From NCBI GenBank assembly GCA_963843795.1, contig CAWJLW010000006.1, positions 124,001 through 188,000 of the forward strand: a DNA stretch of 64,000 nucleotides, given 5' to 3'. Source of the DNA: an uncultured bacterium (GTDB lineage Bacteria; Armatimonadota; Abditibacteriia; Abditibacteriales; Abditibacteriaceae). A model generated the notes under the pieces. The model did no database searches. It was not told where the DNA came from and saw nothing but the letters and a program-made list of their open reading frames with translations. The translations under genes and the position numbers were made by a program. Below are positions 28,226 through 41,370 of the stretch, in pieces; position 1 is the first letter of the stretch, and each line of letters opens with the position of its first letter.

Positions 28226-28454
28226 TTGCGAAACGTGTTGCAAGTACTTGCAGGTATGCTGCGAAAGCGGTTTAAAATTGAAAGCGATGTGCAATTTCTC
28301 GATTCGAATTATTTCGCCCGCAGCGTGCGCTGTGGAGCGTTGATTCGTGTCGATTTTCAACTCGCTCCCAAGCCCGCTGCAAGTACTTGCAGCGGGCTTT
28401 TTTGTGTCTAATTTACTCACTAATCTCTGCACTTTGCGTGAAAGCAAAAACATT

Positions 28455-30074
28455 ATGAAAAAAATACAAATCTACGACACTACCTTGCGCGATGGCGCGC
28501 AGGCTGAAGGCATCTCGTTTTCGGTCGCCGACAAGTTTAAAATCGCACGCGCCTTGGACGATTTCGGCGTCGATTTCATCGAAGGCGGCTGGCCCGGCTC
28601 CAATCCCAAAGATGTCGAATTTTTCGACCTGGCCAAAACCTACGATTGGAAACACGCCCAACTCGCCGCCTTTACCATGACGCGACGCGCCAATATCCGC
28701 GTGGAAGACGACGCCAATTTACAAACCATCATCGCCGCGCAAACGCCCGTCGTGACTGTTGTCGGCAAATCGTGGGATTTTCATGTCGAACGCGCGTTGC
28801 GAGTTCCGCTGGACGAAAACTTGCGCATGATCGAAGACAGCGTGCGTTACGTCAAAGCGCAAGGTCGCCGCGTTTTCTATATCGCCGAGCATTTTTTCGA
28901 TGCCTTCGCCCAATCGCCCGAATACGCGTTCAAAACTTTGCAAGCTGCGGTCGATGGCGGCGCGGAAAGCCTTGCGTTGCCCGATACCAACGGCGGCTCG
29001 ATGCCCGAACACATCGCGCGCGGCGTGCGTGAAGTGTTGGAGCGTTTCGGTTTGCCGGTCGGCATTCACACGCATAACGATTGCGAAATGGGCGTCGCCA
29101 ATGCGCTGGCTGGCGTGCAAGCCGGAGCGATGCAAGTGCAGGGCACTGTGAACGGTTTCGGCGAACGCTGCGGCAATTGCAACCTGATTTCGACTATCGC
29201 CAACTTGCAATTGAAAATGGGTTACGAGTGTGTACCGCCCGAAAACGTCGCCAAACTGACGCATTTGTCGCACCTTGTCAACGAAGTCGCGAACTTAGTT
29301 CCCGATGATCGCCAGCCGTTTGTCGGCAAATCGGTTTTCGCGCACAAAGGCGGAATGCACGTCGATGCGGTGCAAAAAGCCGGCGGGCGCGCTTACGAAC
29401 ACATCGAGCCGGAAAGTGTGGGCAATGCGCGCCGCATCTTGGTTTCCGAACTGGCCGGAACTTCCAACGTGCGCGAATTGGCGCAGACGTTCGGCGTTGA
29501 TTTGCAAAAAGGCGGGCCGGAAGCGCGCCGCGTTTTGGATGCGGTGAAGAATTTGGAAGCGCAAGGCTTTGAATTCGAGGGCGCCGAAGCCAGCTTTCAA
29601 CTGTTGGTGCAGCGCACTTTGGGGCAAGAGCAGCCGCTTTTCGAGCTGTTGGGCGCGCGCACTGTAAACGAATTGCGGCCTTCGCGCTGAGGGCGAAAAT
29701 TGGACGACCGAAGCGACCTTGAAAATCAGCGTCGAAGGTGAAATCGTCCACGTTGCTGCCGAAGGCGAGGGCCGGTTCACGCGCTGGATAATGCGATGCG
29801 CAAAGCGCTGCGCCAGTTTTATCCCGAATTGGACACCATTCGCTTGAACGATTTCAAAGTGCGCATCGTCAACACGCGCGAAGGCACAGCGGCCAAAGTG
29901 CGCGTGTTGATCGAAAGCGGCAACGAAAATAAAACGTGGTCAACGGTTGGCGTTTCGACCAACATCATCGACGCGAGTTGGCAAGCACTACGCGAAGCGT
30001 TGCAATATGGATTGACGCTGGGCGAAAGCGAGAGGGAAACAGCCAAGAACACGAAAGGGTGCAAAGATTTTTGA
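28455..30074 (+). pseudogene. cimA: Citramalate synthase, frameshifts near 29685 and 29770 (likely sequencing errors)
   Basis: YDTTLRDGAQAEG, EGGWPGSNPKD, AHKGGMH; C-terminal regulatory domain (KVRVLIES..WSTVGVS.NII.ASW.AL) in shifted frames. Confidence 0.88.
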
Positions 30075-30854: not shown

Positions 30855-30888
30855 AAAAGCGCGCTGCAAGTACTTGCAGCGCGCTTTT
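30855..30888. terminator. 34-bp palindrome AAAAGCGCGCTGCAAGTACTTGCAGCGCGCTTTT, bidirectional terminator candidate
   Basis: Between convergent genes; identical copies at 43481 and 56396, one-mismatch copy at 12727. Confidence 0.8.
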
Positions 30889-30909: not shown

Positions 30910-32061
30910 TTAAGCGGTGCTTTTTTCAAACTGCCCGTGACCAATATGGTTATTGACAACTAACGTGCCCAGCACTTCAACAATCGCTCGTAAAGCCAAG
31001 AGCGCAGTAATATCGGAAGTGTCGTAAGGCGGCGAAACTTCGACGGCTTCCATTCCACACAAGCCTTCTTTAGCGACCAGACGCAGCAATTTCAACACTT
31101 CGCGCGGCAAGAAGCCGCCCGGTTCGGGCCAGCCGGTGCCGGGCACGAAACCGCAATCGACACTATCAATGTCGAACGAAAGATAAACTGCTTTGGCGCC
31201 TTTCCACGCGGTTTCGAGCGCGATTTCGGCGACTTTTTCGATGCCCAATTCTTCGACATCGCCAATTGTCAGGATATTCGAGCCGCGCTTGAGCGCTTCT
31301 TTGACGCCGATGCGCGGGCACTGCCAACCACCCAAGCCGATTTGCACCAAGTTCTCCGGCGGCGCGTTGGGAATGTTGGTGGCGTGGAACCACGGCGTGG
31401 TGTGCATCCGCTCGTCCATGTCTTTTTCCTGAAAATCGACGTGGCGGTCGATGTGAATAATACCGATATTGCCATCAACGTGTTCGGCCAAACCACGCAC
31501 GCACGGATAACCAATCGAGTGGTCACCACCAATCATGATCGGAAACACGCCTTTGCCGGCTACGAAACTGACCGCTTTGGAAATTTGGTCAAACGATTTT
31601 TCGATGTTGGCAATCGTGAACACATCGCCCAAATCGACCAAGTCCAACGATTCGCGCAGGTCGAGCGCCATTTCGTAATTGTAAGTCGTGTAAAGTGCCG
31701 AAATGCGGCGCACAGCTTGCGGCCCGAAGCGCGTGCCGGCGCGATAAGTGGTGCCGATATCGAACGGAATGCCCATGACGGCGGCTTCGTAATCGCCGAC
31801 TTTGGTGACATCTTCGAGATAAGGCGCTTTGAGAAACGTATTGATACCCGCCCAGTGCGGTAATTCTCCGCGCGAAAAGGTGGAAATGGTGCGGTCGCCA
31901 ATCGAAGGTGCGGCTTCCAAGCCCATTTCAAGACCGCGTTTAATGTCTTCGAGGTATTTTTTGTTGGGAATTTTGCCTTCGGCTTCGGCGGCTTCCAAAC
32001 CGTGATATTGTGTCGGATCGTCTTCTAATTTGCCATCTTGGTGATCGTGAAACCAACCCAT
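30910..32061 (-). CDS. gdmH: Ureohydrolase (arginase family), guanidine hydrolase GdmH-like
   Basis: GGDHS, HIDRHVD, SFDIDSVD..FVPGTGWPEPGG; N-terminal TFSRGELPHWAGINTFLKAPYLEDV and DERMHT.PWFHATN as recalled from cyanobacterial GdmH. Confidence 0.8.
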   Translation of the reverse strand: MGWFHDHQDGKLEDDPTQYHGLEAAEAEGKIPNKKYLEDIKRGLEMGLEAAPSIGDRTISTFSRGELPHWAGINTFLKAPYLEDVTKVGDYEAAVMGIPFDIGTTYRAGTRFGPQAVRRISALYTTYNYEMALDLRESLDLVDLGDVFTIANIEKSFDQISKAVSFVAGKGVFPIMIGGDHSIGYPCVRGLAEHVDGNIGIIHIDRHVDFQEKDMDERMHTTPWFHATNIPNAPPENLVQIGLGGWQCPRIGVKEALKRGSNILTIGDVEELGIEKVAEIALETAWKGAKAVYLSFDIDSVDCGFVPGTGWPEPGGFLPREVLKLLRLVAKEGLCGMEAVEVSPPYDTSDITALLALRAIVEVLGTLVVNNHIGHGQFEKSTA

Positions 32062-32166
32062 AAGTGTTCCTTTATCTGTTATCTATCGGCGCTGTGAAAG
32101 CGCCGGGTCTATATGTAAATTGTTGTGCGACTTGCGTGCTGTCCGACGATAAACACACAATAAGCT

Positions 32167-32544
32167 ATGCGAAAGTCTCTATCATTGCTTATGTCTCAGT
32201 TGTGGTTTCTGGTCGTGTTTTCAATCACAACACTGTTGCTGACAGCTTTAGCGGCGGCCTGGCTTTTCAGAGTCATTCCGCTGCTTCCCTTGCTGGGCAT
32301 CCTCGCACTGATTGGCTGCTGTCTCAACCGATTTAGTTACAACACTCGTGCTGTGTTCGTTAACTTGGGCGCAGCCTTCCTTTTAGCGCTGCTGTTTTCA
32401 AAGCGCTCACCTGCCATTGCAGCCGCTATCATGGCTTTTCCGGTTGTCTTTATTGTTACCGTGGCCATCGGAAACTGGATGGACAAGCCAAATGAAGAGG
32501 CTCTGGCTGAGGCCAAATGCACACAACCGGGAACGACAGAATGA
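32167..32544 (+). CDS. Small hydrophobic hypothetical membrane protein
   Basis: 125-aa ORF with ~4 TM segments, opposite strand to the surrounding operon. Confidence 0.5.
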   Translation: MRKSLSLLMSQLWFLVVFSITTLLLTALAAAWLFRVIPLLPLLGILALIGCCLNRFSYNTRAVFVNLGAAFLLALLFSKRSPAIAAAIMAFPVVFIVTVAIGNWMDKPNEEALAEAKCTQPGTTE

Positions 32545-32628
32545 TACTGCCATTTTCTGCAGAGCTACCAAATGGGTGGGCCACAAATTAAACGGCCTCG
32601 ATAAAAGCGTGGCATAGAAAAGTACCTT

Positions 32629-33978
32629 TTAAAAGAAGCGCGCGTAACGCTGCACTTCCCACTCGGAAATCGTGTTGTGATATTCGTCGGCTTCGCGGCG
32701 CTTGATACCGACAAACTCTGCGACCAGTTCTTCGCCCAGAACATCTTTGAACCACGGATCACTGTCGAAAGCATCAATCGCTTCTTCCAATGATTTGGGC
32801 AAAGGTTCGATGCCGCGCGCTTTCATCTGGCACGGCGACAACTCGTAAATGTTATCTGAAATCGCTTCGCCTGGCTCCATTTTCTGCTCAATGCCATCTA
32901 AACCCGCCGCCAGCATCAGCGCCGCTGTCAGATAAGGATTGCAGCTCGAATCGGCGCCGCGACATTCCACACGACCCCCGCCCATCGGCACGCGATAATT
33001 ATTCGAGCGATTGTTCTGCCCCAAATTGTTGAAAACCGGCGCCCACGAATAATAGCCCATTTGACCGCGCTTCACCAAACGCTTGTAAGAATTGATCGTC
33101 GGCGCCGCGACTGCCATCAAGCCACGTCCATGCGCTTTCATTCCGCCAATGAAATTGTAGCCAATTTCGGCCAGACCCAAGCCGCGCGGGTCATCCGCAT
33201 ACTTGAACAAGTTCTTGCCGCTTTCAATGTCGGCTAAGCTCATGTTGAAATGAGCGCCGGTTCCGGCTTGGTCGGCGAACGGTTTGGCCATAAAAGTGGC
33301 CAATAAACCCAAATCCGCCGCGACTTTTTTGGCCATAAATCGCCAGAAAATATAGCGGTCGCTCATTGTTAACGCATCGGCATAGGCGAAATCGAATTCA
33401 TACTGGCCATGCCCGTCTTCGTGGTCGAACGAATACACGTCCCAGCCCAACTCGTTCATATATGTCACCATGCGGTCGAGAAAGGCGAAATTGTGCATAA
33501 AGCCGCTCACATCGTAGCAGGCTTTGGGCAGATTGTCGTCGCGGTTGGGCACGAACAATTTGCCGTTTTCGTCCTGACCTAAAACGTAAATTTCGCCTTC
33601 AATGCCGAGATTGAAGGTGTAGCCCATTTTGGCGGCGCGTTCGAGCTGCTTTTTCAAAGCGACGCGCGTGGAAAGCGGATACGGTTCGCCGTGAAATGTG
33701 TTGTCGGCGGCCAGCCACGCGATTTCTTTTTGCCACGGCAAAATCATCACGGAATTCGGATCGGGCAGAGCGGCGATTTCATCATCGTTCGGGCCTTGTC
33801 CTAAGCCATCAAGCGCGTAGCCGGTGAACAATTCCGAGCCTTCCATCATGTGTTCAAAATGGTTGATGGGAACGCATTTCGATTTGGGCACGCCGTGAAT
33901 ATCAACATAACAGCCCAGCGCGTATTTTACGCCTTTTGATTCCAAATCGTTCTTTAATGCGGCAATATCTTTAGACAA
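32629..33978 (-). CDS. glnT: Type III glutamate-ammonia ligase / GS-like gamma-glutamyl ligase (GlnT/GmaS family)
   Basis: [58 protein letters not shown] start with AGGAG RBS. Confidence 0.85.
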
Positions 33979-34023
33979 AACTCAGGCTCCTTTTTAGTCT
34001 GCAAGTGCTTGCAGACGTAAATT

Positions 34024-34769
34024 TCAAATATCCAACGGCGCTTTTTCGACCAGCGCTTTTTTGACGAAATACGTCCAATCGTCGACTAATGCCGCGAACA
34101 AATCGGCGCCCATTTCCGGTGTGGCTAAAGTGGGCGAACCGGTGTGGCCTAAGCCGCGAGGTTTGTGGCACGGTGTAGGAAAACACTAAATTGGCGGTGC
34201 GGTCGGGATCGTCTTCGATGCGTTCGGTGCGCACCAAATCCGGCGCAAGGTGCTGCATCAGCGCGGTTTCGGCGGCGTTGGCGTGCCAATCCTCAGCGTC
34301 TTTGGTGTAAGCGCTGTGGACACGCTGCGAGACATCGCATAAATGTTTTTGCGCGATTTGCGCAGCCGGAAAATCGCGCCGCACTTCTTCCAGCGCGCAG
34401 CGTAGCGGAGCAGCGTTGGAAACGTGACCGTTCATCATCACGATGCGCGTGAACCCATACGCGATGACATCGCTTAAGATTTCTCGCAATGACAAGCGCC
34501 AGAGTATTCGGCGACAGCGACAAAGTTCCCGGCCAATGGCGCGTGTGGCCCAGCGCGCAGCCGAACGGCAGCGCAGGCAAAACCGGAACGCCGGTGCGCG
34601 CTGAAACCGCGTGCGCCACGGTTTGGGCGCATAGCGTATCAACGTTGAGCGGCAGATGCGGGCCGTGCTGCTCGGTCGAGCCGATGGGGAAAAGTACGAT
34701 ATCAACGCCATCGGTTCGCATATCGCGCACAATTTCCCACGTCAATTCTTCCCATAAAACCGGCTTCAT
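34024..34769 (-). pseudogene. Creatininase/creatinine amidohydrolase family protein, frameshifts near 34490 and 34150
   Basis: PIGSTEQHGPHLPL.VD, H...WPGTLSL, NGH.SN, DWHANAAET, G.P..AT.E.G. Confidence 0.85.
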
Positions 34770-35490
34770 TCCGCTTCCTTTTCCTGCAAGTACTTGCGGA
34801 TGACTTCACGATAACGCGCGCCATCCATAATTTCGTTGTGGCACGGATAAGCAACTTCGACCGGCAATTCGCGCAACCTTTTCATGGTTTCGATATAAGT
34901 GGGAATATCGCTGCATGGCAGGAAATCGAAAATCTCGCCATCGTAAATCGCATCCGTCGAAAATAACGCGCGATTGGCTTCGTCCCATAAACAAATCAAA
35001 CCCGGACTGTGGCCGGGTGCGTGAATGACTTGTAACTGTCGGTCGCCCAAATCGAGAATTTCGCCATCGTGTAAAATTCGCGTCGCGGGCGCGGCTTTGG
35101 GCTGCCAATCTTGCGCGGTGAAAGTTGGATAGGGCAAAAACGCGAAATCTTCGGTTGCTAAAAACCGCTCGCCATAAGTATTTTCGCGCGTGGGTTGCGC
35201 CAAAATTTCGGCTTCATCCGCGTGCGCCCAACGCTCATCGAATTCCCAATTGCTGCCCAGATGATCGTAGTGCGAATGGCTGGCAATTAAAATCGGATTT
35301 TCGCTCAGCGGCGCGATAAATTCGCGCAGCGAAGCCAAACCCAAACCGGAATCAATCACGATGTCGAAATCGCGGCCTTTAACCAGGAAAATATTGCAGC
35401 GATAATCGGCGCGATAAGCAGGCTCAGTGATGTGCCAGATATTGCGGCGACTTCGCGGTAAGCAAACCAATGGGAAGTACGTGAACTCAT
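34766..35490 (-). CDS. Metallo-beta-lactamase fold hydrolase (probable frameshift near 35450)
   Basis: SHSHYDHLG, APGHSPG, STD, PCH; ATG overlaps the upstream stop. Confidence 0.85.
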
Positions 35491-36507
35491 GGCGTGGGCA
35501 GAAATTGTGATATGAATAGATTGCTGTTCTGTGGCGGCTGTGCCATTACTTTTTGTGCCACGAAGAAGTCGGCGATCTCCTGTGATGTCTGCGCCAAAGT
35601 TCCCGGCTTGTCGGCTGTGCCCATCAAAGTTGCGTTTTCGGCTGTGTTATACAATTTCACTTTGCCCAGCATTGCGGTCGCTTCTTCTTTGCTCACGCCG
35701 AAGTATTTCTGTGCGGTAGCGGCGGCCAAATCGGGATTTTTCACAGCTTCCTCGTTGCCTTTGGCGCAAGCGGCGACGAAGGCTTTAACATCGGCAGGCC
35801 GGTCGTCAATTACTTTGCGGCTCACCGTCAAGACATCGACAATGAGGTTGGGCACTTCTTTGCTGGAAAAGACGATTTTACCGCCCGCGCCTGCGGCTTT
35901 GGAAAGCCACGGTTCCCACGTCACCGCTGCGGGAACTTTGCCCGCCAATACCGCCGCGCCGCCAGCGTCGGCGTCCATGTTGGTAATCGTGATATCGCTG
36001 GGTTTCATGTCGTTCTTTTCCAACGCTTTGAGCAGCAGAAACTCATTGGTCTGGCCTTTGGTCGCTGCCACTAGTTTTGCCTTTCAAATCTTGCAGTGAA
36101 GCGATGCCTTTTTCCGTCACGATGCCATCGGCACCATTGCTGGTGTCAACGGCGAAAACGTTTTGCAACGGGTTAGTATTCGCGTCGCGCGAAAGTAAAA
36201 TCGGCGTGTCGGCGGTGGTTAAAGCGGCTTCGATTTGGCCAGAAATCAAGGGCGGCACGCCATCGGCGGGGCCGGAAAATTCTTTCCATTCCACGTTCAA
36301 GCCCGCGTCTTTGAAATAACCTTTATCGCGCGCCAGCATCACGCCGCTAAATCCAATCCATTGATTGAACGCGACGCGAAACGGCTTGTCGGAAACCGTC
36401 TCCGTCACAGCAGAATTTGTTGCGTTGTTGGTCGCTGTTGTGGTTTGCGACGCGCAGCCCGCAATGAGCAATGAAGCCGATAGTGCGGCTAAAAGATTAA
36501 TTTTCAT
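35487..36507 (-). pseudogene. ABC substrate-binding lipoprotein (SsuA/THI5-like), frameshift near 36075
   Basis: Lipobox LIAGC; WIGF....LA.DKGYF; D.SNGADGIV; AAVTWEPWLS. Confidence 0.82.
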
Positions 36508-37184
36508 AATTGGGTGGTTGCGATTAAAGCATCGCTTTGTGCGGCCCAGCCCACAGCGCCGCTTTCGGAAGTAATCACCGCGATGGCAGCTTGGTGTTCG
36601 CTTTCATCGAAGGCCGCGCAGCAATCTTCGAGGAGTAAAGAGAAAAAGCCCAAATCGTTGGCCGCGCGATAAGTGGCCAGCACGCAGCATTGCGTGGTGA
36701 GGCCGCAAATCAATAGATGCGTGATGCCTTGAGCGCGCAGTTGGGCTTCTAAATCGGTGCCGCAAAAGATGGATTGCGCGGGTTTGAAAATTACGGTTTC
36801 CTCGTCGCACGGTGATAGCTCGGCAAGTACTTGCGCGCCCCATTCGCCGCGAACTAAGAAGCGTCCACTTTTGCCCGCGCTGCCGACGGGATAACCGGCG
36901 TTTTTGTAGCGATAGGCTTTGGACGACGGTAAATCGGACAAATCATTTTGGTGCGCCTCGATTGTCCAAATCACCGGTATCTCGCATTCGCGCGCCCATG
37001 AAACGACGCGTTGAATCGGCGCAATGACTGAGCGAATCGAAGCGTCTAATTTCAAATCGTGCAGACAAAAACCATCGGGATGACAGAAATCGTTTTGCAC
37101 ATCAATCACCAAAAGCGCGCTGCGTTCGAGGTCGAGTGGGAAAGCGTGCGGACAGGCTGGCACGATGAAATTCATGACGTGCAT
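36504..37184 (-). CDS. Isochorismatase-family cysteine hydrolase (biuret/guanylurea hydrolase-like)
   Basis: IDVQNDFC, H..DLSDLP, G..GRFLVRGEWG, FKP, GLTTQCCV; D-K-C triad. Confidence 0.85.
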   Translation of the reverse strand: MHVMNFIVPACPHAFPLDLERSALLVIDVQNDFCHPDGFCLHDLKLDASIRSVIAPIQRVVSWARECEIPVIWTIEAHQNDLSDLPSSKAYRYKNAGYPVGSAGKSGRFLVRGEWGAQVLAELSPCDEETVIFKPAQSIFCGTDLEAQLRAQGITHLLICGLTTQCCVLATYRAANDLGFFSLLLEDCCAAFDESEHQAAIAVITSESGAVGWAAQSDALIATTQL

Positions 37185-37188
37185 AATT

Positions 37189-38034
37189 TTAGCTGTTGGC
37201 TGAGGCCAATTCGGCATCCACGACTTTGCGGCCTTCGTCGTGCAGCAAGTGCGAAACTTCTTTGCGCAATTCAAAAAATTCTGTGCTGTCGCGCGCACTC
37301 GCATCACGGTCTTGACCGAAGGGCACCGCAATTTCGGCTTTGAAATGGCCGGGGCGCGCCGTCATCACGAAAATGCGGTCGGCGAGGTAAATCGCTTCGT
37401 CAATGTCGTGTGTGATGAGTAGGGCGGTGGTTTTTTCGTGTTTGCGAATGCCCAGCACCAAATCTTGCATCACGGCGCGCGTTTGTGCATCGAGAGCGCC
37501 GAACGGTTCGTCCATCAGTAGAATGCGCGGCGCGTTGGCCAGGGCGCGCGCAATCGCCACACGCTGACGCATTCCGCCGGAAAGCTGCTTGGGAAAATGA
37601 TGATGAAATCCGTGCAAATCGACTTCGGCCAGAAAATGCGAGGCGCGCTTTTCCTGTTCTTCCAAGCTCAACTTTTGCATGCGCGGCCCGAATTTCACGT
37701 TTTCGCGCACCGTCAGCCACGGGAACAGCGTGTAGGCTTGAAACACCATGCCGCGCTCGGCGCCGGGATCGAAAAATTCCTGTCCATCGAGAAACATGTG
37801 GCCCGAACTCGGCTCGGTCAGGCCGCCGATAATGTGCAGCAAAGTACTTTTGCCACAGCCCGATGGGCCGACAATCGCCACAAATTCGCCCTCGTCCATC
37901 GCAAAGGTCGTCGGCTCTAAGGCCAAAGTGGAACCTTTGCGAGTTGTGTAGGATTTCGAGATGTCTTCGATGTGTAGAATCGGTTCGATTTTTGGTGGCG
38001 CGCTTTCGCTTTTAGATTTGGAGGCAGCGATCAT
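37189..38034 (-). CDS. ABC transporter ATP-binding protein (TauB/SsuB/NrtD type)
   Basis: GPSGCGKST, LSGGMRQR, LLMDEPFGALD, ITHD. Confidence 0.95.
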   Translation of the reverse strand: MIAASKSKSESAPPKIEPILHIEDISKSYTTRKGSTLALEPTTFAMDEGEFVAIVGPSGCGKSTLLHIIGGLTEPSSGHMFLDGQEFFDPGAERGMVFQAYTLFPWLTVRENVKFGPRMQKLSLEEQEKRASHFLAEVDLHGFHHHFPKQLSGGMRQRVAIARALANAPRILLMDEPFGALDAQTRAVMQDLVLGIRKHEKTTALLITHDIDEAIYLADRIFVMTARPGHFKAEIAVPFGQDRDASARDSTEFFELRKEVSHLLHDEGRKVVDAELASANS

Positions 38035-38900
38035 CCGTTTCTCCCTTGTTCGGCCCACGGCAACAAACGCGGCTGCAAGAATTTAAATAGCATGTCGGTG
38101 GCAAGGCCCAGTAAGCCCAGCACCAAAATGCCGACGAAAATTTCATCGGTGCGCAAAAAACGCTGCGCCTTCATAATGCGATAGCCCAAACCCGAATCGG
38201 TCGCTACCACTTCGGCAATCACTAAATAAGTCCATGCCCAGCCAATCATCGTGCGGCAGGTTTCCATGATACCGGGCAGCGTGGCTGGCAGCAACACATT
38301 GAACAAAACCTGATGCGGTTTCGCGCCCAGCGTGCGCGATGCGTTGAGCAAATCTTTGGGCACCAAGCGCGTTACATCGGCGACGATGATAATCATCTGG
38401 AAATACGTGCCCAGAAAAATCAACAAAACCTTCGCGCCTTCGCCGATGCCCGCCGCGACCATGACCAGCGGAATCAAAGCCGGAACCGGAATGTAGCGAA
38501 TGAACCCGTTGAGCGGTTCTTGCGAGGCTTCGATGCCTTTATACGCGCCGATGAGAATGCCCAATGGAATCGCCAAAACCGCCGACGCCAAGAAGCCCAT
38601 CGAGATGCGGAAGACCGAAATTTTCATGTCCGGCCACAATTCGCCGCTGCTCCACAAACGCGCTGCTGCGCTGAGAACCGCGCCCGGCGTGGGCAAAATC
38701 AGTGGCGAAACTTTGCCGCCATAAGACAGAAAACACCACAGCGCGATGACGATGGCGAACGTGCTACAGGACAGCAGCCAATAAACTTTGGCGGGAAGTT
38801 CGGCGCCTAAGCGAAACATATTTGGCTTGCGGCGCGACGTGATGGCAGTGGGCGATGCGCCGGGTGTGGCGATGAGTTCAACGTTGGATGAGGCTTGCAT
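38031..38900 (-). CDS. ABC transporter permease (TauC/SsuC type)
   Basis: LPTPGAV, RYIPVPALIPL, ASRTLGA, WTYLVIAE..GLG. Confidence 0.93.
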   Translation of the reverse strand: MQASSNVELIATPGASPTAITSRRKPNMFRLGAELPAKVYWLLSCSTFAIVIALWCFLSYGGKVSPLILPTPGAVLSAAARLWSSGELWPDMKISVFRISMGFLASAVLAIPLGILIGAYKGIEASQEPLNGFIRYIPVPALIPLVMVAAGIGEGAKVLLIFLGTYFQMIIIVADVTRLVPKDLLNASRTLGAKPHQVLFNVLLPATLPGIMETCRTMIGWAWTYLVIAEVVATDSGLGYRIMKAQRFLRTDEIFVGILVLGLLGLATDMLFKFLQPRLLPWAEQGRNG

Positions 38901-38951
38901 GTGAATCTTCTCCCGTTGGTGACTGCAAGTACTTGCACGAGCAAACCAGTA

Positions 38952-40086
38952 CTATTTTTTGTAATCGTAAGGCGCGGCTTTGCCCAAACCTTTTTTCACC
39001 GATGCCTGCACAAATTTGGCATCAATCGCTGCCGCGTAATCTGGCACTTTAGGAATTTGTTTGGCGTCCACCAAAACTTGCGCGTTGTCCTGTCCCGACA
39101 CATACAGCGAAGTCGGCTTCTCGCTTTTCTGCATCGCATTCGAGCGCTTCGGGCGCACTGAAAATGCGCGTGCCCATCAGGAACGATTTGTAATCGGCCA
39201 CCGGCGTATCGGTGCGTTTGGCGAGAATTTTCACGGCTTCGTCCGGGTTGGCTTTCCACCAATCCATGGCGTCATACCAAGCATCAACGATTTTCTGAAT
39301 TTCTTCGCTGCGTTTGCCGACGACATCGCTTTTCATCACCAGCAAATCGGGAATCGAACCGGGCACATCGGAAGAATCGAAAACTGCGGTCGAGCCTTTG
39401 AGGTCGTTGAGGATTTTGGTGCGCGACGGCTCCCAAACTACAGCGGCATCGACTTGTTTCGACAGCATCGCGGCGGGGCAATCTTGCACTTTGATGTTAG
39501 TGAACTGCATATCTTTTTCGCTCATGCCGTTGGCTTCAAGCGCTTTCAATAAAAGAAAGTGGTCGCAAGTCCCCAACTCGGTCGCCACTTTTTTGCCCTT
39601 CAAATCTTTGACGCTTTTGAAGCCGGGCTGCGCGATCATCGCATCGTTGCCAAACGAATTGTCATTCACTAGAATCGCTTTCAAATCCAAGCCTTGCGCC
39701 AATGGCCCCATCGTATCGCTCCACGTCTGACAGTTGGCATCGACTTGTCCCGCAGCCAGCGCATTCAATGAATCGGTATAAACCGGAAACCAGACCAGCT
39801 TCACATTAGCGCCGTGCTTTTTGAAAAAGCCCTGTTGGTCGGCGATGTCCCACGCCACCCAGCCCGGCCAATCGGAGTAACCGATGGTAATGGGTTCGCC
39901 AGAAGCGGCGGGCGCACCAGCCGACGACGCAGTTTGGGTGTTCGAATCGGGCGTTGCCGCGTTGTTACCGCAGCCGGACGCGCTGAAAAGCAGCGCGGCA
40001 CAGGTGGCGAGCGTGGCGCAGGCGCGGCGTAGAAATCGAACGGGAGAAACGGGCGGGGTTGTGGGGCGAGTGAACGGCGAAATCAT
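38952..40086 (-). pseudogene. ABC substrate-binding lipoprotein (SsuA/THI5-like), frameshift near 39145
   Basis: Lipobox ASGC; IGYSDWPGWVAW, VNDNSFGND, AAVVWEP, IPDLLV; GAGGAG RBS. Confidence 0.85.
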
Positions 40087-40247
40087 GGGCTTGGCTCCTC
40101 TATCGAATAGAATATGGGCCAGCCGTTGAGGAAATGCGGCGTTTGCGCGGGCAAAACCAAAGCGTCGAAATCGCTGTGTCGAAATCGGTAGGAATGGTAC
40201 GCGAACGTTCTTTCTTTCCACCAGCGGCGGCGGGAAGGCCAGAATCC

Positions 40248-40309
40248 AGCGTCGTGGGCCAAAGCTGTTGCTGCGCAACTTTGTCTTCCGTTCGTGTCCT
40301 GAGCCGACA
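40248..40309 (-). promoter_or_regulatory. Candidate cis-regulatory RNA in the operon leader (glnA/glutamine-riboswitch-like architecture)
   Basis: Minus strand: UGUCG...ACGGAAG-ACAAAG-UUGC-GCA-GCAA-CAG-CUUUG-GCCCA-CGACG-C; closing stem, GGAAG junction and a hairpin. Confidence 0.3.
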
Positions 40310-40530: not shown

Positions 40531-41370
40531 ATCGAATCGGGATTATTTTGGTTGGGCGTTATCGGCTTGGGCGCGGCGCATGCTTTCGAGCCGGATCACA
40601 TGGCCGCCGTCAGCACGTTTGTGGCGCAGCGTCCCACGCCGCGCGAAGCCGCCAGTTTCGGCTGCAAATGGGCACTGGGGCATGGGTTCAGTTTGTTGCT
40701 ACTGGGCGGCGCGCTGGCCGCTTTAAAACTGCTGGTGCATCAGCCCGCGTTGTTTGCTTCGGGCGTGCTGGATAAAATCGTCGGACTGGTGTTGCTCGGC
40801 TTGGGTTTGTGGATGATGATTCAACTGCGCACTGGCCCGTATTTACCGCGCACGCTGATTGGTTGGCGCGCGGTTTTGCGCGGTCGTCCTTGGCGCGAAC
40901 GCACGTTGGAAGAACAAATCGTTGAACAACAGGCCAACGCGCGCCAGTCGAAAAACGCAAGTGAAGATGACGATTTGCCCTTGTTTGGTGCGCCCGGAGC
41001 GACCACGACGCGCGCGACTTTACAGCCCGAATCCAGTGCGCGCGTCGTGACGCGCATGGCCACAGCCGAAGGCGAAAAAAGCGGACTGGGTTCCTTATGG
41101 ATGGGAATGTTGCACGGCGCGGCGGGAACGGGCGCGTTCGTCGGGCAGGCCGCGATTACACTTTCGCAAAGCTGGATGACGGCGTTGCTTTACACCGTGC
41201 TATTTTCGCTGGGCGTGCTGATGGCGATGAGCTTTTACGCTTCGGTTCTGGGCGGCGCATTGACTTATGGACAAGCGCGCAGTGCGAATTGGCTGCGCAC
41301 CGCGCGTTGGCTCACAGCGGGCGCGACGTGCGCAATCGGTATCTGTCTGGTGCTGGGAGTTGAATTTTAA
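40531..41370 (+). CDS. UreH/NiCoT-like nickel transporter family membrane protein
   Basis: HAFEPDH (HX4DH-type metal motif), WALGHG, GMLHGAAG; start either ATC 40531 (after GGGAGG) or TTG 40552. Confidence 0.75.
   Translation: MESGLFWLGVIGLGAAHAFEPDHMAAVSTFVAQRPTPREAASFGCKWALGHGFSLLLLGGALAALKLLVHQPALFASGVLDKIVGLVLLGLGLWMMIQLRTGPYLPRTLIGWRAVLRGRPWRERTLEEQIVEQQANARQSKNASEDDDLPLFGAPGATTTRATLQPESSARVVTRMATAEGEKSGLGSLWMGMLHGAAGTGAFVGQAAITLSQSWMTALLYTVLFSLGVLMAMSFYASVLGGALTYGQARSANWLRTARWLTAGATCAIGICLVLGVEF

Follow-up and report, generated by a model that had tools for sequence, protein, structure and literature searches.

Four classes of guanidine riboswitch and two routes of guanidine breakdown have been described so far, and where guanidine and methylguanidine come from in nature is still open (PMC12186494, PMC12508155). 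The described systems closest to the present locus are the cyanobacterial gdmH-ghaAB-gimABC locus and the comammox guanidinase (PMC12704784, PMC11410670). They share with it a GdmH-type enzyme carrying all the signature residues, a linked ABC importer, a leader RNA element and a urease encoded elsewhere. HypA/HypB-type chaperones belong to the cyanobacterial guanidinase loci and are absent near the comammox genes. The present locus differs in having no guanidine-I riboswitch, in the NicO-like gene and accessory genes for urease in its neighbourhood, and in an added pair of a creatininase-fold hydrolase (Crn) and a GmaS-like ligase (GS3) together with accessory hydrolases; HypA (PF01155) was not found in this genome, which is 92 per cent complete. 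A second point of comparison is the gca/cgdAB/atzF operon with MgdH/MgdL (PMC12508155). In both cases a two-gene add-on in a guanidine operon appears to widen the substrate range, but here it consists of a hydrolase and an ATP-dependent ligase, not a dioxygenase and a lyase, and is attached to a guanidinase.

General features of the operon

The window analysed is a stretch of 64 000 nucleotides. The nine genes of the operon all lie on its minus strand, with the order and labels that an earlier note had given them: a binding protein (SBP1), an ABC permease and an ABC ATPase, a cysteine hydrolase (CysH), a second binding protein (SBP2), an MBL-fold hydrolase, Crn, GS3 and a ureohydrolase (UH). 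Pfam and NCBIfam agree with these labels. Four of the eight junctions overlap by 4 nt and three have gaps of 4–51 nt. The remaining gap, between GS3 and UH, measures 567 nt here and 66–258 nt in relatives; it holds an ORF of 125 amino acids on the opposite strand (32167..32544, plus; 48.5% GC), which matches no family, has no homologue in any fetched relative locus and is probably not part of the system. A terminator-like hairpin centred on a genome-wide palindrome follows the last gene (30855..30888, minus strand); a scan for promoters and terminators gave hits at chance level only.

The nine-gene cluster is conserved in the family. Since Crn, GS3 and UH are adjacent in six of the eight other family genomes that have UH, the arrangement is not due to chance. 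The earlier note did not recognise the gene combination as a characterised pathway, and our literature search likewise found no description of it; the proposed catabolism of guanidine-type nitrogen is supported by the present data. The leader motif, the frame breaks, the 567-nt gap and the divergent NicO-like gene, all discussed here, had gone unmentioned; the motif and the NicO-like gene are located just past the end that the note had set for the operon.

The explanation that we favour, and regard as reasonably probable, is a guanidine-scavenging operon for uptake and breakdown of guanidine as a nitrogen source, under a predicted leader riboswitch. It builds on directly established gene content, synteny and signature residues, and on the motif with its covariation and distribution. 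The core of the operon is the ABC importer with the guanidinase, and the genes do not form one linear five-step pathway. The predicted riboswitch would switch on the importer and UH; UH would hydrolyse guanidine to urea and ammonia, the urea would pass to the urease, whose genes lie elsewhere in this genome, and nickel would be brought in by the product of the divergent NicO-like gene. Crn and GS3 form a conserved module of their own, one that joins either of the two known guanidine routes. Our committed guess is that the substrate of this module is methylguanidine or a closely related N-alkyl guanidine, with Crn releasing methylamine and urea from methylguanidine and GS3 capturing the amine in a gamma-glutamyl amide. 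CysH, SBP2 and the MBL-fold protein would be interchangeable additions that extend the operon to other amides or ureides.

A bolder proposal, to which we give somewhat less than even weight, is that the leader represents a fifth, family-private class of guanidine riboswitch and that the operon joins a guanidinase to an undescribed hydrolase–ligase module, which would be either the route of the missing methylguanidine amidinohydrolase or a new way of assimilating guanidino nitrogen with glutamate. If true, a fifth aptamer fold would mean that guanidine sensing has evolved independently once more in bacteria. The hydrolase–ligase pair is widespread and is now seen beside both guanidine routes; its substrate, once found, would be another guanidino compound mined for nitrogen by bacteria.

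Guanidinase, importer and nickel supply

The best solved relatives of UH (30910..32061, minus strand; arginase family) are the guanidinases of Nitrospira (E = 2e-150) and Synechocystis (9e-147), the next being at 1e-48. A Thr/His/Trp/Glu signature and six metal ligands serve as criteria for guanidinases (PMC11410670). UH has all four signature residues (T105, H220, W311 and E341, equivalent to positions 105, 222, 313 and 344 of N. inopinata) and all six ligands (H181, D205, H207, D209, D297 and D299). Judged by these residues, UH very probably has guanidinase activity, and the earlier assignment to the GdmH type rather than the agmatinase type holds. A plain agmatinase is ruled out by the signature residues, and UH stays below the cut-offs of the agmatinase NCBIfam models (206/302 and 162/174 bits). 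A DmgH/MefH-type enzyme was also rejected: UH is a single gene and matches at E = 1e-33 only.

The importer genes, all on the minus strand, encode the NMT1/SsuA-type SBP1 (38952..40086), the permease (38031..38900) and the ATPase (37189..38034), each recognized by Pfam and NCBIfam; SBP1 scores 155 bits against TIGR03427 (cut-off 334), the model used here for guanidine-binding proteins of the GimA kind, while its gene context points to guanidine. Among 27 family genomes, UH (nine genomes) and the carboxyguanidine deiminase CgdAB (five) never occur together and, though exclusive, accompany the same SBP1. In genome G009, an SBP1 orthologue (73–76%) is the sole transporter in a guanidine carboxylase operon. 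SBP1 is a likely component of a guanidine importer, and we predict with some confidence that it binds guanidine.

The putative nickel transporter (NicO/UreH-like; 40552..41370, plus strand) is divergent from the operon and matches Pfam NicO weakly, below the cut-off. It is kept beside the operon: divergent homologues are present in G012 (partial), G013, G014, G020, G041 and G042.

The leader motif

The most novel part of the locus is a conserved motif of about 90 nt in the leader (40214..40305, minus strand). Two invariant strands flank a variable, covarying hairpin P2, whose length ranges from 24 to 51 nt among copies; an outer stem P1 spans 40305–40237, and a downstream hairpin P3 could compete with P1. 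There are 14 copies in 13 genomes, one per genome except for two in G015. Twelve stand directly before SBP1 and one before CgdAB-Gca-AtzF; the last precedes the gene of an EFE-like dioxygenase, after which SBP1 comes next. Two of these placed copies were outside the training set. The copies come from kin in one family, which are not independent, and mostly precede one orthologous gene.

In the alignment, 92.9% of cells are paired, with double changes in five of 17 pairs and six pairs invariant, and the covariation score was reached by none of 500 shuffles. P1 and an extended P3 give folds within about 4 kcal/mol in all 14 copies. Single sequences folded no better than shuffled ones (z +0.5 to -1.6), and among the copies neither a conserved terminator nor a pairing with the ribosome site was found. 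The structure is conserved, covaries and sits in the 5′ leader of genes that are linked by function, which is one criterion for a riboswitch of any class, and we think it likely that the motif acts as RNA.

A known riboswitch was rejected, as the leader has no match in Rfam at E up to 5–10, nor with the Rfam covariance models of guanidine-I, -II and -III. The motif shares with guanidine-I to -IV and GGAM-2 to -6, in the text of their descriptions (PMC12186494, PMC7736828), a leader position before guanidine import or breakdown genes and covarying stems with invariant internal loops. According to the same text, GGAM-2 to -6 belong to other phyla and lie mostly ahead of sugE; the lineages and gene contexts described there for guanidine-IV and GGAM-2 to -6 differ from those of the motif.

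The motif is present in eight of the nine family genomes with the guanidinase, in all five with the carboxyguanidine deiminase and in none of the 13 with neither, that is, in 13 of 14 with a guanidine route. In two genomes without a guanidine-I match it heads guanidine carboxylase genes, and an SBP1 paralogue (70% identity) in G012 is without it. It is absent from all 94 other relatives outside the family. Searches of viral contigs and of 61 genomes surrounding a locus from Verrucomicrobia gave no copy, the latter search having had no positive control. Exact-pattern matches in two genomes outside the family (G027, G151) were treated as chance because the outer stem is missing and the model gives them no score. 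In other phyla, guanidine-I riboswitches occupy the equivalent slots (L105, L108 and L123).

The leader is put forward as a candidate new guanidine-type riboswitch with predicted binding, the ligand being guanidine or methylguanidine with slightly better than even probability. A guanidine-I riboswitch lies back to back with the motif in three genomes, so the ligand of the motif could differ. This arrangement, the restriction to one family and the fact that no expression platform was found would suit a protein-binding or nitrogen-status element, or a sensor of something other than guanidine, ahead of a loose nitrogen-scavenging collection of genes. We consider this unlikely, given the presence in 13 of 14 genomes with a guanidine route and in none of the 13 without, the covarying hairpin of variable length between invariant strands, and the low copy number, with no copy near urease, urtA or glnA in this genome.

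Frame breaks

Five frame breaks affect four of the nine genes: SBP1 (near 39140), SBP2 (at 36072), Crn (near 34480 and at 34154) and probably the MBL gene (near 35445, read against the N-termini of homologues). They are probably assembly errors, because independent contigs of about 98–99% identity lack the extra base at both sites that they cover (34154 and 36072). By tblastn, three of the nine operon genes are broken, against three of 104 genes elsewhere, and this copy of the operon may therefore be decaying while the operon is genuine in relatives. The inserted orphan ORF and genome G014, with a degenerate Crn and no GS3, would agree with such decay. We nevertheless hold it to be rather improbable: besides the evidence of the independent contigs, there are no in-frame stops, and UH, GS3, the permease, the ATPase, CysH and the leader are all intact.

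The Crn–GS3 pair

GS3 (32629..33978, minus strand; Gln-synt) scores 574 bits against TIGR03105 (cut-off 470). GS3 keeps the GmaS catalytic residues and lacks the ammonia residues of glutamine synthetase, with T53 and W313 where type I has Asp50′ and the glutamate flap; it is therefore a GmaS-like amine ligase, and an ammonia-assimilating glutamine synthetase closing the route is ruled out. Like GmaS (PMC7948447; PDB 7CQL, 9QUR), it has equivalents of D177, E179, E186 and R312, a Trp replacing the glutamate flap and no Asp50′. Unlike GmaS of the methylamine pathway, of which it is a paralogue, it forms a separate clade, coexists with canonical GmaS and pairs with Crn, not mgsABC. S184 and D197 occupy the positions of GmaS Q175 and N188, the changes to S and D being found in 42 of 42 alignment rows, and these substitutions give the amine pocket more room and a more acidic character than in GmaS. 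MgsC is absent from this genome, where gamma-glutamylmethylamide thus has no known fate, and is present in only three of ten other tested genomes bearing the pair.

Crn (34024..34769, minus strand) has the creatininase fold and metal-binding motif. It is a distinct subfamily: V and T/S replace creatininase Y121/E122, and its pieces score 75 and 42 bits against TIGR04448 (cut-off 235). An AlphaFold model (pLDDT 71) confirms the fold and nothing beyond; ESM Atlas look-ups returned family names only.

Crn lies directly upstream of GS3 in all 15 loci of the GS3 clade, as delimited by a quick tree, and 3637 Crn-like proteins were found at E up to 1e-60. Plasmid searches gave no Crn and only GmaS of 40–42%. 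The human-gut-labelled locus L153 and loci L132–L164 (Crn of at most 41% identity, partial or distant) were set aside, as were the distant ligase loci L048–L075, except L051, in the neighbourhood clustering. The pair occurs across phyla with either guanidine route: among 24 pair loci of at least 10 kb, 17 have a guanidine marker and seven have none, and 11 have an ATP-driven carboxylase; the guanidine-type Asp is present in all eight readable carboxylases. In three loci, the pair lies within methylamine/dimethylamine clusters, next to a second, canonical GmaS.

That the substrate is methylguanidine is a tentative guess. The methylguanidine amidinohydrolase of Alcaligenes sp. N-42 is presumably an orphan activity. 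As cited in PMC12623156, it catalyses the reaction proposed here for Crn, the comparison being one of reactions. A creatininase structure has 1-methylguanidine bound, according to the title of PDB 3A6D.

Alternatively, the pair could be a third, ATP-driven guanidine route, in which GS3 makes gamma-glutamyl-guanidine and Crn frees glutamine and urea, complementing a low-affinity guanidinase (Km 13.6 mM; PMC11410670). Guanidine-I riboswitches directly ahead of GS-Crn (L123) and of SBP-permease-ATPase-Crn-GS (L105, L108) point this way, as does the altered pocket. Such a route is improbable: it would be redundant with the carboxylase in 11 of the 24 long loci, leaves the three methylamine-cluster contexts unexplained and has no precedent that our literature search could find.

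Accessory genes

SBP2 (35487..36507), an NMT1-type protein by Pfam, and the MBL-fold hydrolase (Lactamase_B; 34766..35490) are, like CysH (36504..37184), accessory genes on the minus strand. CysH, of the isochorismatase family, has the catalytic triad D28, K134 and C167, with Q137, Q165 and E207 where BiuH has K145, D173 and Q215. We take Glu at the Q215 position to be a signature of guanylurea hydrolase (GuuH). CysH thus has the fold and triad of BiuH/TrtA/GuuH (PMC7948467) with three BiuH residues replaced, and falls below the cut-off of the BiuH model NF050097 (193/370 bits); by these features it is BiuH-related, not BiuH.

The CysH slot holds an orthologue (66%) in only one relative and proteins of 28–33% identity in four others. 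Shorter versions of the operon in G014 and G041 lack CysH, SBP2 and MBL altogether; in G041 two contig ends overlap at only about 95% identity and are therefore not shown to form one locus. In the single multistep route of the earlier note, all hydrolases would act in series on one guanidino compound, either larger or cyclic, such as a creatinine-like molecule, biguanide or a product of guanine oxidation, and guanidine would be reached through guanylurea. This reading could draw on the tight gene packing, the Glu of CysH, the PuuE-like, Rieske and SDR genes recurring around the pair in other phyla and the proposal of guanine oxidation as a guanidine source (PMC12623156), but it is improbable, as CysH is non-orthologous among relatives, G014, G041 and most distant loci do without CysH, SBP2 and MBL, Crn lacks creatininase Y121/E122, and three relatives carry GGT and RidA as insertions.

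Operon layout and frame changes

The window spans C6:124001–188000 of the source genome G000 (4.30 Mb, 11 contigs, 92% complete) and carries nine minus-strand genes from 40086 to 30910, which encode a binding protein (SBP1), a permease, an ATPase, an isochorismatase-family cysteine hydrolase (CysH), a second binding protein (SBP2), an MBL-fold hydrolase (MBL), a creatininase-fold hydrolase (Crn), a GmaS-like glutamate-amine ligase (GS3) and a GdmH-type ureohydrolase (UH). Order and common strand are as in the earlier note, and Pfam and NCBIfam uphold its label for each of the nine genes. Four junctions overlap by 4 nt and three have gaps of 4–51 nt; ligase and ureohydrolase are 567 nt apart, with an orphan opposite-strand ORF between them (32167–32544, plus strand; 125 aa, membrane-like, lower GC) that has no homologues among the fetched loci.

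Our verdict is a conserved, intact-looking operon, probably for guanidine scavenging, rather than a five-step chain. Most of what it contains varies on known themes; the hydrolase–ligase module and a candidate new guanidine-type riboswitch are undescribed in the literature searched. The gene combination does appear uncharacterised, as the earlier note supposed: no description of the operon, the Crn–GS3 pair or the leader motif was found in the literature searched, including PMC11399263, PMC12623156, PMC11410670, PMC12508155, PMC7948467, PMC9800807, PMC12625717, PMC7948447, PMC12704784, PMC9478397, PMC7736828, PMC11109978 and PMC12186494; supplementary motif lists of large RNA screens could contain the motif. 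The family, probably Abditibacteriaceae, is named in none of the 15 papers listed among 149 matches.

Frame changes are found in SBP1 (one), SBP2 (one) and Crn (two), and probably in MBL near its start. With intact proteins from relatives as queries against G000, three of nine operon genes change frame, versus three of 104 others, an excess that favours decay of the operon; against decay, contigs from an independent run (about 98–99% identical) cover just two of the break sites, 34154 and 36072, and the extra base is missing from both; in-frame stops are also absent. We consider assembly error the likely source of these breaks. Outside the operon, an HMGL-like gene (citramalate/isopropylmalate synthase type; 28347–30074, plus strand) looks split into two ORFs, possibly by another frame break.

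Conservation within the family

UH is present in nine of the 27 family genomes (G000 included), and Crn–GS3–UH are adjacent in six others (G003, G012, G013, G020, G041 and G042; GS3 71–77%, UH 88–90%). G014 combines SBP1–permease–ATPase with a degenerate Crn and UH, and the UH locus of G018 is a fragment. CysH has an orthologue (66%) in G020 only, with stand-ins of 28–33% in four other genomes; GGT and RidA genes interrupt the cluster in G012, G013 and G042, and in G041 Crn directly follows the ATPase. Because the content around it differs among family genomes, the core of the operon is the importer plus the putative guanidinase, usually with the Crn–GS3 pair.

Five of the 27 genomes encode carboxyguanidine deiminase (CgdAB), and all five lack UH; such family counts come from kin genomes, which are non-independent, and are therefore given without a P-value. 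In G009 the same SBP1–permease–ATPase is followed directly by CgdAB–Gca–AtzF (Gca, guanidine carboxylase), and in G002, G010 and G021 the importer and these genes are divergently oriented. Thus, a single importer serves two guanidine routes that exclude each other, an arrangement that speaks for both the guanidinase assignment of UH and guanidine as the predicted ligand of SBP1.

Ureohydrolase and urease

The assignment of the ureohydrolase as GdmH-like holds at the sequence level. Its closest solved structures are the guanidinases of Nitrospira (9FEK) and Synechocystis (7ESR/7OI1), and the guanidinobutyrase match trails by about 100 orders of magnitude. All four signature residues used as the guanidinase criterion in PMC11410670 are present (T105, H220, W311 and E341, once a two-residue tag offset is allowed for), as are all six metal ligands. 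G000 encodes urease and urtA; HypA, guanidine-I riboswitch, CgdAB, Gca, MgsC and Dmm were searched for in this 92% complete genome and not found. The urease genes lie in two places (contig C6, 1.25 Mb and 2.89 Mb; L169, L189): at one, ureC is accompanied by urtABCDE, glnA and a NicO-like gene; at the other, ureA is accompanied by ureF/G/D-like genes.

The Crn–GS3 pair

The GS3 genome scan returned 64 loci. A quick tree (78 rows) places 15 sequences, each with Crn directly upstream, in a clade of their own (SH-aLRT 99) separate from mgs-linked GmaS. A selection by Crn covered 47 metagenome loci (L085–L131, out of 80 returned); 35 of these have a GS-like gene, and nine of the 12 without one are contigs shorter than 4 kb. 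Among the 24 loci that span 10 kb or more and have a GS3 match of at least 56%, Gca or CgdAB occurs in 11, UH in five and only the guanidine-I riboswitch in one, with no marker in seven. The Asp of K. lactis 1584 is found in all eight carboxylases readable at the site. In L022, L024 and L027 the pair lies among mgs genes (in two, dmm genes also) with a second GmaS.

GS3 retains the catalytic residues of GmaS and is without the glutamine synthetase ammonia residues described in PMC7948447; it differs from GmaS by Q175 to S and N188 to D, two changes shared by all 42 rows examined from the wider clade. Crn shares the creatininase fold but lacks Y121/E122. As MgsC orthologues occur in just three of ten pair-bearing genomes tested, the pair is independent of the N-methylglutamate pathway. 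Methylguanidine, a tentative candidate, is the one simple substrate that would match both its guanidine and its methylamine neighbourhoods; PMC12508155 describes another two-gene methylguanidine add-on within a gca operon.

A NikR-like regulator lies directly 3' of GS3 in many Crn–GS loci (L092, L094, L096, L098, L103, L104, L110, L111). A satellite cluster (Rieske oxygenase alpha subunit, SDR, FGE-sulfatase domain, TIM-barrel and PuuE-like proteins) recurs by SBP1 paralogues or the pair (L229 in G012:C14, L023, L051, L088, L131) and may process a larger precursor. Methylamine/dimethylamine clusters (mgs, dmm, canonical GmaS) occur in Armatimonadota, this family included (L024, L027, L080–L084, L192). 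A second GmaS-like paralogue clade, mostly from Actinomycetota (L019, L020 and L029–L044 except L030, L042, L043), has a conserved cluster of APC permease, AllG-like protein, formamidase and two proteins without confident Pfam match.

The leader motif

Upstream of SBP1 (40214–40305, minus strand), the aligned DNA of relatives contains a variable hairpin flanked by two invariant strands. RNAalifold predicts an outer stem (P1) and the variable hairpin, together with a core that combines two short invariant stems with large internal loops. In a 14-copy alignment, biased toward the motif model, 92.9% of cells are paired and five of 17 pairs changed on both sides; the covariation score was reached by 0 of 500 shuffles, and slid controls drop to 29–44% paired. 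A MAFFT alignment of 12 copies gives 88.1% paired and again 0 of 500 shuffles. Two results count against a riboswitch: single motif sequences fold no better than shuffles, and no conserved terminator is evident across the 14 copies, although the P1 3' strand has an alternative downstream pairing of similar energy in all 14.

Across 401 genomes of the phylum, the exact pattern matched 14 and its reversed control none; 12 of the 14 are within the family, and the two outside it lack the outer stem. When 121 genomes were searched with the model built from 12 copies, 14 copies turned up in 13 genomes, every one a family member; of the two additional copies, one lies before SBP1 in G020 and one in G015 before an EFE-like 2OG dioxygenase gene with SBP1 next in line. 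By route, the motif occurs in eight of nine UH genomes, all five CgdAB genomes and none of 13 with neither. One G015 copy lies directly ahead of CgdAB–Gca–AtzF, and a guanidine-I search of G009 and G015 gave no match; in other phyla, guanidine-I fills the leader slots held here by the motif. Also counting against a guanidine-type riboswitch, guanidine-I and the motif stand back to back in G002, G010 and G021, and a second SBP1 in G012 lacks the motif. We regard the motif as a candidate new guanidine-type riboswitch.

EFE-like 2OG-Fe(II) dioxygenases recur in guanidine-type operons (L227 in G015:C212, L113, L128, L014), once directly behind the motif. The window has 44 copies of a perfect 12-nt palindrome (e.g. 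27035, 30867, 43493, 56408), and the 4.3-Mb genome has 2563; copies often form the middle of terminator-like hairpins, and others lie within ORFs.
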